From: an uncultured Alphaproteobacteria bacterium
Lineage (GTDB): Bacteria > Pseudomonadota > Alphaproteobacteria > Rhizobiales > Beijerinckiaceae
Direction: 5' to 3'
Length of the DNA stretch: 64,000 bases
Assembly (NCBI GenBank): GCA_963785995.1
Contig: CAWAXL010000012.1
Span: forward strand, 1,556-65,555
In this document: in pieces, positions 1-4,090 of the stretch
Position numbering within the stretch: position 1 is the first letter of the stretch
Layout of the letters: each line of letters opens with the position of its first letter
Position numbers and translations under genes: made by a program
The notes under the pieces: model-generated
What the model saw: the letters and a program-made list of their open reading frames with translations, nothing else
Told to the model about the DNA's origin: nothing
The model's database searches: none

Positions 1-81
1 AATTTTGCGCGCAAGGTTCGCGATTTCGAGTTGGGGCTTCGCAAGGAACAAAACTAATGGCACACCTGTCCCTGTCGGAAA

Positions 82-210
82 TCAAATCCGAACATAGTGA
101 TGGTGTAATCCGCCGAGAATTGGCGCCGGCAGAATGTGCCCAACAGCCTGAACGGCCCGCGGCGTCGGCGCGTCTTTGTTCAGAGACAGATGTGTGCGAG
201 CACTATTGTA
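82..210 (-). pseudogene. C-terminal remnant of rve/integrase-core transposase, probable element end TGTCCCTGTCGGAAAT at 67-82
   Basis: Manual translation YNSARTHLSLNKDAPTPRAVQAVGHILPAPILGGLHHHYVRI*, the typical C-terminus of this family; preceded by an in-frame TAA. Confidence 0.8.
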
Positions 211-304
211 TTAGCCCGCATCCATCAGTGTGAATACGCGCGCAACTTCGACCCCCACTATAGCTGGCCAGCGCATTGATGTCATTGCGAAAACTTTCAA
301 TGTA

Positions 305-338
305 GCGGGGTCACGTTTCGCGCGAAACGTGACCCCGC
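305..338. repeat. Perfect 34-bp palindrome, REP-like, with GTAG at 302-305
   Basis: GCGGGGTCACGTTTCGC|GCGAAACGTGACCCCGC. Confidence 0.85.
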
Positions 339-506
339 CCAGGAAATGGATTCACCCGAATAAACAACGACATGCGTTCAATGTGGGATGGGGTCATGAT
401 TGGATGTGATTTCACAGAAATCGGTGACATGCGTAGGAGATGGGCTGCATAACCCAGCATAGCGTATTCGATCGCCTGTTGCTCGCTAACGTGTCAATGC
501 CCTCGG

Positions 507-1125
507 GTGTGTGCAATGGTCAAAGCGCCGGCTCCCGAGGAAGAGGACCGCCGCCGACTTTGCCGCGAACGCAAGGTGCTGATCGCCGAGCGGGTCAAGC
601 ACGTAAATCGTATCAAAGGATTGCTGTTCTCCGAGGGCGTGTCGGGATACGAGCCGCTGCGTCGCGATCGGCGGCGACGGCTCGATGAGCTGAGGACGGG
701 CGATGGCGGTCCCTTGCCAAAGCATCTCAAGGCTCAGATCAGCCGTGAGCTCGATCGGCTCGAACTGTTGCTTGAGCAGATCAAGGCGGCGGAGATCGAG
801 CGGGACGCGCTGCTTGCCGCGCAACAAGTCGCCGCGCCTGCGTCAGGGGCGATGTTGCTCGACATCAAGGGCATCGGTCCTGAGTTCGCCGCCATCCTTT
901 GGTCGGAAGGACTGTTCCGACACTTCGACAATCGTCGCCAGATCGCTTCTTACGCAGGGCTGGCGCCGACACCCTGGCAAAGCGGATCGGTCGATCGCGA
1001 ACAGGGCGTGTCTAAAGCAGGCAATCCGCGATTGCGAACAACGCTTATCCAACTCGCCTGGCTATGGCTGCGCCATCAGCCGCAATCGGCGCTGGCCCTG
1101 TGGTTCGAAAACCGAGTCAGACGCT
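507..1125 (+). pseudogene. IS110-family (IS1111 group) transposase, truncated at both ends
   Basis: IKGIGPEFAAILWSE...YAGLAPTPWQSG...SKAGNPRLR (Transposase_20 domain). The N-terminal DEDD domain and last helices are missing, and the ORF reads on into the non-coding end to 1238. Confidence 0.9.
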
Positions 1126-1127
1126 CA

Positions 1128-1424
1128 CTGAATCCTCAAATCTTCCAGGACCTGATCAGTCCTGGCGGATCCAGGTGGACGAACCGCAGCTTCGCATGGC
1201 TTAAAAAGCCGCCTTCAAGAATGGTTTCGTCTTCCTGAGCCCCGCCCGCCGCAAGCGGGATATTGGTGCAGCCGTCGTGAACGGCGACCGAATGTGAGGT
1301 TGATCTGGCGAGGAAACAACCAGGCCGTGCAATCGGGCTGAGACCTTGGATACCGAAAAAGCCGCTGGAGTATTATCGATGCGCGTATGAATCTCATCTC
1401 TTGACCCGAACCTCCCCATGTGAG
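1128..1424 (+). ncRNA. IS1111-type right-end non-coding region (bridge/seek RNA) and element right end
   Basis: Hairpin at 1145-1165 and two internal-loop modules (1178-1231, ~1262-1305) with segments matching the insertion flank and the element end; ends ...CCTCCCCATGTG-AG. Confidence 0.75.
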
Positions 1425-1487
1425 CGAAGCTCTTGATCGGAACAACCCGATGACTGCCCACCAGATCAGTTTGAGCATGTCTCCCAT
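1424..1487 (-). pseudogene. N-terminal remnant of rve/integrase-core transposase, interrupted by the IS1111 element
   Basis: MGDMLKLIWWAVIGLFRSRASL, the characteristic N-terminus of the family whose C-terminus is at 82-210. Confidence 0.75.
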
Positions 1488-1643
1488 GAGCTTTGTCACG
1501 TTCGTGGGTTTTACTTGTCAATAGGGCGGGGCGCTCGAATAGCGAGTGAGAGCCACGGTTGGATGCCGGTTCGCCGTCTTGTGTGCACCTTAGTGTCGCC
1601 GCATTCAACTCTAAGCTAAGGGCACAATTATTTATTTACGGAT

Positions 1644-2345
1644 ATGCAGAACATGGCGCGTGGAATTTCTTCGATCGTGACAACTGCGGTGGTCGCTGGA
1701 GCGATCGGCTTTGGAGCAGGCGTTTATCTCGTACCGAACGAAAAGGCCGACCAATTCCGCGCTATGGCGAACGAAAAGGCGGACCAATTCCGCGCTATGG
1801 TGCAGGGTGGGCTTGGCGCGATCTATCGAGTTGTTTATTCCGACAAGGCTGATCCCGATATTCACCCTTCGGAATCGTCACAAACGAAGCCCCCTGGAGA
1901 GACATCTCGTACAGAGGCGCAACCAGATGTCCCGGCGGGATCGCAGCCTGGCGCCGATGCGCAATGCGATCCTGGCAACTCGACGTGTCGTGGTGGACTC
2001 CCTGTCGATGCCGCAGCTCCACAAGATATCCCTGACCGTGATGTTGCCGCCCCGAGCAGTTCGCCGCCTGAACAAGACGATCAGCCATCACATGCATTGA
2101 ATGCCGATCCTTCTGGAACTGTGCCGCCTGGGATTTCTGACCGTGAGGTTACCGCCCCGAGCAGTTCGCCGCCAGAACAAGACGATCAGCCATCACATGC
2201 GTTGAACACCGATCCTTCTGGAACTTTGCCGCCGAACAGCTCACCAAACATTGAAAGTGATGCCCCTACGCCTGTCGCCCCAGAAACTGCTAAAAAGAAG
2301 CCCCCTGCCAAGAAAGTGAAACCCAAGAGCAGCCCCAGCGAGTAG
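1644..2345 (+). CDS. Membrane-anchored Pro/Ser/Asp-rich hypothetical protein with internal tandem repeats
   Basis: N-terminal hydrophobic helix; 33-bp duplication (1735-1800) and 105-bp duplication (2032-~2233), both in frame; Lys-rich tail. Confidence 0.75.
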   Translation: MQNMARGISSIVTTAVVAGAIGFGAGVYLVPNEKADQFRAMANEKADQFRAMVQGGLGAIYRVVYSDKADPDIHPSESSQTKPPGETSRTEAQPDVPAGSQPGADAQCDPGNSTCRGGLPVDAAAPQDIPDRDVAAPSSSPPEQDDQPSHALNADPSGTVPPGISDREVTAPSSSPPEQDDQPSHALNTDPSGTLPPNSSPNIESDAPTPVAPETAKKKPPAKKVKPKSSPSE

Positions 2346-2544
2346 CTTTTCGCCGATGGGGTCCGGGCCCGCCGAGGTCTTCCTGCAGCCGATGGTCAAG
2401 TGCACGGGCGAGCAGGTTCCTTCGAACAAAGCCGCTGGTGGTTCCTCTCTGGTTTTGACGCCACAGATTGCGAAGCTCACCCACGTTCATCGCCGCGATG
2501 GATTGAGCTTCACATCGGGATCACGTCGCCCTTGACGAAGGCTC

Positions 2545-2835
2545 CTATCGGTCGGCGCTGTCGAGTTGGTGCAGATAGCGTGCAACGCTCTCCTCGATCT
2601 GCGCCATGCGCCGCTGCATCTTGGCGCGCGTGAAGTTCTTGTCCCGATTATTGACCGCCTTGAACTTGCTGCCGTCGATCGCGACGCTGGCCTCAGCGAA
2701 AAGGCCCATCGTGCGGCAGAGCGCTACGAACCGGGTGCAGACCTGACGGATGGCGCGGCCATTGTCCTTGCGGAAGTCGGCGATCGTCTTGTGATCTGGA
2801 ACGAGGCGCCTTGTCAGCCACATCACCTCGATGTT
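2545..2835 (-). pseudogene. IS1182-family transposase internal fragment
   Basis: NIEVMWLTRRLVPDHKTIADFRKDNG...AIDGSKFKAVNNRDKNFT. Confidence 0.9.
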
Positions 2836-3014
2836 CCCCAGAAACTGGACTTCTGGGGACGGGGTCGTGACCTTCTGCATTGCGCCAACAAGAGACATTG
2901 TTGTTGCCGAGATATGCGGTCCGCAAGCAGCTTTATCTCGCCCGAAAATCGTTTCAATATCCTTGTCAGCTGCTGCTCCGGCCGCCCGGCACCAAGAAGA
3001 TGCGAAGGTAACCG

Positions 3015-3590
3015 ATGAACAAGGAACGACTTGCTGCCTTCAGCGACGGCGTTATCGCCGTCATCATCACCATTATGGTGCTAGAGATGAAGGTACCGCG
3101 CGGCTCGGAGCTGGGAGCGCTTTGGCCCTTGGCACCGGTTTTCGGAAGCTATGTGCTGAGCTTCGTGTACGTGGGTATCTACTGGAATAACCACCACCAT
3201 TTGCTGCATGCTGTGCAGTCTATTAACGGCCGCATCCTCTGGGCCAACCTGCATCTGTTATTCTGGCTGTCGCTAATTCCTTTTTGCTCCGGGTGGATGG
3301 GTGAGAACCATTTTGATACTCTGCCGGTCGCACTTTATGGCGTGGTACTCTTAATGTGCGGCATTGCATACTACATTCTCGCGCGGCTCCTGATTGCACA
3401 CCACGGTCATCAGTCAAACCTGGCGATCGCGTTGGGCAGCGACTTCAAGGGGATTGCGTCGGTTCTGCTCTATATCGCGGCCATTCCGCTCGCCTTCTTC
3501 AGCTCGCCAGCTACATTCGCTGTCTATGTGCTCGTTGCGGCTATCTGGTTCATACCAGATCGTCGGATAGAAAGGACGTTTAGGCAATAA
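3015..3590 (+). CDS. TMEM175-family (DUF1211) potassium channel
   Basis: RLAAFSDGVIAVIITIMVLE signature, YWNNHHH, multiple TM helices. Confidence 0.93.
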   Translation: MNKERLAAFSDGVIAVIITIMVLEMKVPRGSELGALWPLAPVFGSYVLSFVYVGIYWNNHHHLLHAVQSINGRILWANLHLLFWLSLIPFCSGWMGENHFDTLPVALYGVVLLMCGIAYYILARLLIAHHGHQSNLAIALGSDFKGIASVLLYIAAIPLAFFSSPATFAVYVLVAAIWFIPDRRIERTFRQ

Positions 3591-4090
3591 AGCGTTCCAT
3601 GTGACCTTGCGAACCGAACGTCCCAGATGATTGTCGACTGAGAAGCCGCAAATGTTGCGTTCACGCTGTGTGAGTTCGAGGCCGACTAACTAAGTACCAA
3701 ATTGTTCCACGAGCGTAGCAGTGGAAAACCTCTCGGTTCTGTAGGAACGTCCGTTCTGGTCAATTCCTGTCATCGAAAACTCTGAGCCGAACTTCCGCAA
3801 AGGGTCGAATGCAGAAGTTCTTCAAATGACTCTGGGACGCCGATAGCATCCGATGATCGTGGAAACACCTCACGCCGAGATGCAGCGAGCGGCAGATCGT
3901 TAATCCGCTCGACAGCCATCGCTCTCATCATGCTCAAGCCGACATCCACCTGATTGGCCCCCCATTGGGTGGTCCGCGCGAATGCTAGTTTAGCCGGGAA
4001 TGACCATTGAAAGCGCTTGAAATCGACGGTATTGGACGCTGCCGAGATTTGACTGTTATCAGTAAGGGAACGGTTAACCAAAACCGTATG

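Follow-up and report, generated by a model that had tools for sequence, protein, structure and literature searches.

The element at positions 497-1424 of the window, by which we mean the whole 64,000-nt stretch of DNA analysed here, is a truncated member of the IS1111 group of the IS110 family. With a probability of roughly 0.9, we consider it best explained as the dead remnant of an IS1111-group element with a bridge RNA, which was once guided by that RNA into an rve-type transposase gene and later suffered deletions. All testable defining features fit the IS1111 group and the bridge/seekRNA mechanism, and on this sequence evidence the RNA is a predicted one and the element a decayed member of a known system. 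An IS1111-group element would have inserted into the rve-type transposase gene of a different IS, at codon ~26, by RNA-guided site-specific recombination. A post-insertion deletion would have removed the left ~40% of the element together with rve codons 27-300, and a second deletion of ~130 nt would have taken the end of the element's transposase gene. The features concerned are, in order along the window:

67-213, minus strand: C-terminal remnant of the rve-type transposase of the target IS, residues 301-342 (tblastn 81%; blastn 82% over 147 nt).
497-1118, plus strand: remnant of an IS110/IS1111-family transposase, approximately residues 142-352 of 390 (Pfam Transposase_20, 3.7e-19).
1118-1119, plus strand: junction of an internal deletion of ~130 nt, with loss of the transposase C-terminus and stop codon.
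1119-1424, plus strand: right non-coding end, which encodes the predicted bridge/seekRNA (94-98% identical to full-length copies, by segment).
1145-1165, plus strand: upstream hairpin CCAGGAC..GTCCTGG (helix 1; 4 pairs with compensatory changes).
1169-1173, plus strand: AUCCA, the 5' strand of a long-range helix that encloses both loops, pairing with UGGAU at 1347-1351 (helix 2; 97.9% paired).
1177-1185, plus strand: 5' strand of the target-loop basal stem, pairing with 1223-1232 (helices 3 and 4; 3 compensatory pairs).
1186-1197, plus strand: target-loop 5' arm GCAGCUUCGCAU, with the guide AGCUUCGC (1188-1195) against top-strand core G plus CGAAGCT.
1198-1210, plus strand: target-loop apical hairpin GGCTT-AAA-AAGCC (helix 5).
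1211-1222, plus strand: target-loop 3' arm, composed of GCCUUCA (left-flank guide), AG (core) and AAU.
1235-1241, plus strand: 5' strand of the donor-domain closing stem, pairing with 1336-1342 (helix 6; G1237 opposite G1340 broken).
1257-1263, plus strand: GGGAU-AU, candidate left-end guide (reverse complement of ATCCC; invariant, left ends being all ATCC(C/T)).
1264-1290, plus strand: donor-loop apical stem, UGGU/ACCG and GCCGU/ACGGC (helix 8 invariant; helix 9 compensatory at 4/5 pairs).
1291-1298, plus strand: donor-loop 3' arm AAUGUGAG, with the same sequence as the right end and its AG core (arm and right end covary in the family).
1411-1424, plus strand: right-hand copy of the sub-terminal inverted repeat, CCTCCCCATGTG, and then the AG core (covaries with the left repeat in relatives).
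1425-1536, minus strand: N-terminal 26 rve-type codons (1422-1490) and a 47-bp repeat (1490-1536).

The transposase remnant matches the NCBIfam model NF033542 ('IS110 family RNA-guided transposase') at 7.5e-42, the open reading frame at 507-1238 matching both this model and Transposase_20, and it is 88% identical to residues 142-352 of our 390-aa reference, L050. Full-length relatives, 74-100% identical to L050, carry PF01548 (DEDD_Tnp_IS110), PF02371 (Transposase_20) and NF033542. The window copy retains the PF02371 part alone, its N-terminal domain having been deleted, and lacks the DEDD/RuvC domain as well as the final ~38 residues. Similarity to full copies starts at about position 497, and the deletion at 1118/1119 was located by alignment with a second copy in the same genome (contig C9) and with L145, L151 and L040. 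Some 306 nt (1119-1424) separate the position of the transposase stop from the right end, which corresponds to the long 3' non-coding region of IS1111 elements; the left end of full copies measures ~70 nt. Transposase production is no longer possible in the window element and its RNA gene is structurally almost intact. Because the left end is lost the element is unusable as a donor, only the right copy of the sub-terminal repeat (1412-1420) having been kept, and because the left flank was deleted its own left junction is unreadable. No full-length or intact copy of the window type was found in its own genome or in the genus, where just three copies occur, all of them truncated. The further copy on contig C9, the only other one in this genome, is more decayed, with deletions of 5 nt and 17 nt inside the two loops.

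Remnants of the rve gene flank the element on both sides in the window. On the minus strand, positions 1422-1490 encode rve-type residues 4-26 (..LFRSRASL), 95.7% identical in tblastn to an intact 342-aa homologue (L019:1493-2521) that matches Pfam rve_3. With the same homologue as query, window 85-210 was found to encode residues 301-342, and uninterrupted homologues align from window position 1422/1423 on. The remnants on both sides therefore indicate that an rve-type IS was split by the IS110-family element and then underwent deletion. An earlier interpretation made from the letters and reading frames of this DNA (the sequence-only reading) had already described the insertion flank as coding sequence of an rve-integrase gene, and the tblastn match over residues 4-26 agrees. 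In relatives, uninterrupted rve genes read ..CCTCG-AG-CGAAGCTC or ..CCTCA-AG-CGAAGC. The 47-bp repeat at 1490-1536 is taken to be the left end or terminal repeat of the rve-type IS; solitary copies of it lie at C9:8980-9026 and at C20:146069-146115, and it is also found in many genomes of the genus. In another genome (G027, L019:2430-3068), a different IS110-family transposase (MKIAVLGVDLGKNVCS..) begins directly downstream of the intact rve-type IS. The ~280 bp between the C-terminal rve remnant and the truncated element (window 214-496) are unique in the genome, a perfect 32-nt palindrome lies at 307-338, and a fragment of a DUF772-type (IS5-like) transposase gene occupies 2545-2898 on the minus strand. 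The window is littered with the remains of mobile elements at that end.

The ends of the element were defined from relatives. A protein-based scan recovered 80 more full-length relatives from Methylocystis, Mesorhizobium, Sinorhizobium/Ensifer, Roseiarcus and many soil MAGs, and rhizobial plasmids widely carry the family, under the annotation 'IS110 family transposase'. Within the genus of the window, one genome (G005) carries two types in full length, one at 96% and the other at 81%. Approximately 60 full copies share the boundaries flank-AG|ATCC(C/T)ATGGGGAG ... CTCCCCATGTG-AG|flank, with AG on either side in nearly all of them, and the uninterrupted rve target contains a single AG. Insertion is sequence-specific, with a short core common to donor junction and target and no further duplication. 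The AG that borders the full-length relatives therefore identifies the core as AG (CT on the other strand), bearing out the AG/CT core proposed in the sequence-only reading. The left end predicted there, AG-CTGCACC, proved wrong: the ~60 full-length relatives begin AG-ATCC(C/T)ATG..., their left end being AG-ATCCCATGGGG (also written ATCCCATGG), and GGTGCAGC, which had been read as the guide arm for the left end, is part of the capping stem of loop 2. In relatives, ATCC-CATGGGGAG at the left end covaries with CTCCCCATG-TG(AG) at the right end, these being the sub-terminal inverted repeats that in the IS1111 group are 7-17 bp long and set in from the ends; the paired forms are GGGGAG with CTCCCC, GAGGAG with CTCCTC, GACGTG with CGTC and GGGCGT with GCCC. 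Three of the genomes used are flagged as unpublished (G019, G009 and G014), among which G019 gave L012/L051 (one 81%-type row) and L037 (one uninterrupted target); our conclusions are independent of all three.

Two further observations concern the right end. In L083 it is tandemly duplicated at ~1668-1692, reading CCCCATGTGAG-CT-CCCCATGTGAG. A TTGAC box at window 1396-1401 (columns 298-303 of alignment A1), ~23 nt from the right end, is kept in most relatives and may represent the -35 half of a promoter that arises when the circle junction forms.

The right non-coding end contains two loops whose arms match the flank and the element end. In loop 1, the outer stem pairs GACGAACC (1178-1185) with GGTTTCGTC (1223-1231) around the inner hairpin at 1198-1210, the 5' arm AGCTTCGC (1188-1195) is the exact reverse complement of the flank GCGAAGCT (1424-1431), and CTTCAAG lies at 1213-1219 on the 3' side. 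In loop 2, ATGTGAG at 1292-1298 recurs at 1418-1424. All of these had been recorded in the sequence-only reading and were confirmed. In 20,000 dinucleotide-preserving shuffles of the 299-nt non-coding region, the 8-mer match arose by chance in 0.6%, the 7-mer match in 2.1%, and both together in 0.015%.

Both loop-1 arms and both flanks were extracted for each copy, yielding 36 distinct guide pairs from relatives. The reverse complement of the 5' arm matched its cognate right flank over a mean of 5.14 contiguous nt, compared with 1.14 +/- 0.21 for permuted pairs, and the 3' arm plus AG matched the cognate left flank over 6.47 nt, compared with 2.67 +/- 0.21 (0/5000 permutations in both cases). 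To the right of the core, therefore, the 5' arm pairs with the top strand, and to its left the 3' arm pairs with the bottom strand, core included. Thus, the two arms of the target loop read opposite strands of the target halves and change with the target, and the covariation of guides with flanks that had been proposed as a check of the sequence-only reading was borne out in each arm. The window's 5' arm matches core G plus CGAAGCT over 8 contiguous bases, as good as typical cognate pairs. Subfamilies vary by one base in the register of this pairing against the core. In 17 pairs, the window included, the first guide base lies opposite the core G; in ~9 the guide begins one base later, and all of these have G as their first flank base; a few pairs are shifted the opposite way. 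In L042, L092, L044/L065 and L109 the left flank alone matches the 3' arm, or neither flank does; on this analysis they are natural candidates for half-match off-target insertion, a behaviour described for IS621 (bioRxiv 10.64898/2026.08.31.748434).

Copies with the window's own guide occupy the rve site. The exact 5' arm of the window occurs in 15 stretches of metagenome contigs, five of which are full-length copies with a recognisable left end. In three of these (L145, L146 and L151) there is an rve junction on each side, the left one reading ..(G)CCTCG-AG|ATCCCATGG and the right one CATGTG-AG|CGAAGCTCGTGATCGG. A fourth (L152) has the rve left flank ..CCTCG-AG and a right flank that diverges past CGAAG, and the fifth (L143) has the rve right flank CGAAGCTCGTGATCGG with a different left flank (..GGTCAAG). 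Eight metagenome copies combine the exact 5' arm with a readable right junction, and each has an rve-type flank (CGAAGCTC in six, a diverged form in two). The search for full-length copies suggested in the sequence-only reading hence recovered the same 5' arm and the predicted rve codon, but with CCTCG-AG as left flank and ATCC as left end in place of those it had foreseen.

The left half of the target is where the window copy departs from its relatives. Full-length rve-targeting copies have the 3' arm GCCCTCG-AG, from which GCCTTCA-AG in the window is two transitions away, and TGAAG is therefore not the family's target. Against known rve left flanks the window arm matches over 2-5 nt only, compared with 7 nt in cognate relatives. 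Of the target proposed from the window alone, AGCTTCG-CT-TGAAG, the right half stands and the left half does not, since uninterrupted rve genes read CT-CGAGG or CT-TGAGG. The corresponding 15-mer CCTTCAAGCGAAGCT had no exact match in 58 genomes of the genus, its one-mismatch matches were at background level with a similar result for a reversed-pattern control, and none of the six inspected lay in rve genes. Matches to CCTTCGAG and CCGTCAAG were considered as rve variants fitting the arms of the C9 copy and the window, and were ruled out on inspection. It is the evidence from relatives, namely guides that track flanks and copies at the same codon, that supports the bridge RNA, the AG/CT core and the rve target.

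The structure of the predicted RNA was derived from an alignment of 38 sequences (A1), in which a consensus of 43 pairs is paired in 97.9% of cells and shows compensatory changes at 15 pairs. None of 500 shuffles was as good (0/500), and slid controls paired in 25-47%. The consensus comprises an upstream hairpin, a long-range helix enclosing everything, the target-loop stem, and a closing helix round a multi-branched donor domain. The window RNA keeps 42/43 pairs; its sole broken pair, G1237 opposite G1340, is unique among the 38 sequences. Single-sequence folding recovered the stems named in the sequence-only reading with energies no better than those of shuffles (z -0.78 and -0.38), and the structure is therefore argued from covariation among relatives. 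An Rfam scan of window 1-4000 at permissive E-values gave no match, and the RNA region contains just one weak promoter-like site.

In the donor loop, the 3' arm changes together with the right end of the element: ATGTGAG accompanies the right end CATGTGAG, and ATATAAG accompanies CATATAAG in the Mesorhizobium/Sinorhizobium clade, a two-base covariation. Covariation of guides with flanks, of the donor arm with the right end, and of the structure itself agree on an IS1111-type bridge/seekRNA in the right non-coding end, as had been suggested from the window sequence. The left end ATCCC is likely to be paired by GGGAU-AU, a pairing inferred from sequence complementarity; this segment occupies the position, with respect to the stem that follows, that the 5' arm has in loop 1, its GGG overlaps a possible CCCGC/GCGGG hairpin (1245-1259), and both it and the left ends are invariant, so that there is no covariation for this guide. 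Following the published work on IS621 and IS1111 elements, the circular junction (..CATGTG-AG-ATCCC..) and the target (..CCTCG-AG-CGAAGCT..) would be brought into alignment by a DEDD transposase tetramer carrying the RNA, with strand exchange at AG.

The departing 3' arm could instead mean that the window copy is a natural hybrid or intermediate, joining an rve-type 5' arm to the 3' arm of a sister subfamily that homes into IS3-like orfA genes; we regard this as possible but doubtful. The arms are GCAGCTTCGCAT with GCCCTCG-AG in the rve type, GCCTTCGA in the C9 copy, and GCACCTTCGCAT with GCCTTCA-AG in L040/L041, where both match the flanks over 9 nt, the IS3-like orfA target of the L040 type being GCCTTCA-AG-GCGAAGGTG. 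The rve and L040 guide types are three single-base changes apart, two of which the window has, and a tree built without guide columns nests L040/L042 inside the rve-targeting clade (support 0.999). The same tree, however, resolves ((L040,L042),(window,(L145,L151))) among rve-targeting copies and puts the window with L145/L151 (support 0.96) rather than with L040, so that the 3' arm in common with L040 requires homoplasy or recombination. Since the guide-free tree separates the window from L040, we rejected a strict evolutionary intermediate as the best explanation. Moreover, both changes are transitions and could reflect post-insertion decay of a dead copy, and the window-type copies known in the genus are the three truncated ones. 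As for the sister subfamily itself, the 96% copies L040:1277-2827 and L041, both from G005, lie in IS3-like orfA at MTKRPRRNHSSAFK|AKVALAAIKGEKT. The transposase genes of L040, L041 and L042 are all frameshifted; G005, possibly a long-read MAG, may contain indel errors.

The 81% subfamily, also from G005 (L045, L047, L050, L053, L055 and L112), has the arms AAACCAATCCGT and GTTATCA-AG and occupies one codon (..PEPIK|DWSLTSLKEKLIK..; ..PEPIK|DWSLTSL..) of at least six DDE_Tnp_1_4 (IS1380-like) transposase genes. Insertions in rve, IS3-orfA-like and DDE_Tnp_1_4 genes indicate that homing into other ISs recurs in the family. We tentatively entertain a broader proposal, which we think improbable as a whole: that the subfamily chiefly parasitises other ISs and switches host IS by single-base guide steps, that window-like copies record a path from rve to IS3 orfA, and that, as the one-base register differences would then imply, the geometry of RNA and DNA at the core is less strict than in IS621.

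Considerably less probable is that the surviving RNA is an orphan guide still working in trans with another transposase in the cell, as the sequence-only reading had envisaged. Its fold is intact at 42/43 pairs, solo ssr9 genes (small RNA of the IS110-family element ISPpu9) exist in Pseudomonas putida (PMC12288879), and diverged IS1111 transposases (46% identical) have similarly folded seekRNAs (PMC11187229). Against this, the 69%-complete assembly contains no close intact transposase, its best open frame, on contig C28, being just 43% identical, and the window element has lost its left end; action in trans thus found no support. The C28 element has a different right end, CCCCATACAAG, so the window donor arm AUGUGAG would not match it as a donor, and its transposase has its own RNA with a different stem sequence. 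Identity to L145 is 94-98% in the RNA region and 94-96% in the dead transposase remnant, and such similar conservation gives no clear sign of selective retention. The helix-breaking change is unique to the window RNA, and the loop deletions of the C9 copy fall in both of its loops. The C28 element (L157, C28:3206-4303 on the minus strand plus ~400 nt downstream) is itself of IS1111 type and apparently intact, with an open frame of 408 aa; its loop has the 5' arm GCTGAATCGCAT, which matches the right flank CGATTCAGG over 8 nt, and the 3' arm GTCATGA-AG, and its right end is ..CCCCATACA-AG.

Coincidental matches within a mere structured 3' UTR or terminator of the transposase gene, a view to which the unremarkable single-sequence folds and the lack of an Rfam match might lend themselves, are already refuted by the guide-flank permutations and the same-arm metagenome copies. 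The two matches have a joint chance of 1.5e-4, throughout the family the two guide arms change with the two flanks and the donor arm with the right end, and the same rve site is occupied by independent copies that share the arm.

Our preferred reading, a decayed IS1111-group element with its bridge RNA, agrees with what has been described for this group. As in the IS1111 seekRNA elements ISEc11, ISPa11 and ISKpn4/ISPst6 (Siddiquee et al. 2024, PMC11187229), the family has a DEDD transposase with a PF02371 C-terminal domain, a long non-coding region 3' of the transposase gene and sub-terminal inverted repeats, and its RNA has a 5' segment against the top strand and a 3' segment against the bottom strand that overlap at the crossover. 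The arrangement of the top-strand match 5' of the bottom-strand match, in an RNA encoded downstream of the transposase gene, is the IS1111 pattern (PMC11187229, PMC11208160). The subfamily transposase, at 390 aa, is longer than the 330-350 aa quoted for IS1111 transposases, and the targets here are transposase genes of other ISs in place of REP sites, attC sites or Tn21 inverted repeats. Also unlike those elements, the window copy is truncated and known here from sequence alone.

Similarly, the RNA resembles the bridge RNA of IS621 and the IS110 group (Durrant et al. 2024, PMC11208160; Hiraizumi et al. 2024, PMC11208158) in its predicted bispecificity, with target and donor loops, and in having two arms per loop, which in the target loop and probably also in the donor loop read the opposite strands flanking a 2-nt core. 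On the complementary strand this core is CT, as the sequence-only reading had proposed. Unlike in IS621, the RNA lies in the right end and not the left, long sub-terminal repeats are present, and the donor-binding bases belong to a domain with several branches, not to a simple internal loop; multi-loop donor domains have been noted for many IS1111 elements (Durrant et al., PMC11208160).

Homing into conserved sequence of mobile elements has precedents in IS4321/IS5075 (Partridge & Hall 2003) and the IS1111-attC group (Post & Hall 2009), which, as far as the account in PMC11208160 goes, target transposon terminal repeats or integron attC sites. The hits in the present family differ in being coding sequences of rve_3, IS3-orfA-like and DDE_Tnp_1_4 transposase genes. 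Small RNA gene copies that lack an adjoining functional transposase gene are likewise known from ISPpu9 and solo ssr9 of Pseudomonas putida (PMC12288879). The ssr9 modules, however, move as their own minicircles with both ends, whereas the window copy is a deletion remnant without a left end.

As a discovery the window element matters little, since right-end bridge/seekRNAs of IS1111 elements were described in 2024 and have been predicted for 93% of catalogued IS1111 elements. More useful is the clean set of natural data obtained along the way from this family, which is widespread among Rhizobiales and their relatives. It contains 36 guide variants for which the left and right flanks are both available, a donor-loop arm whose sequence changes with that of the right end, insertions in which only one target half is matched, and close subfamilies whose targets differ through one to three guide bases. 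Such a data set could help to define the guide rules and mismatch tolerance of IS1111-type recombinases, which are less studied than IS621.
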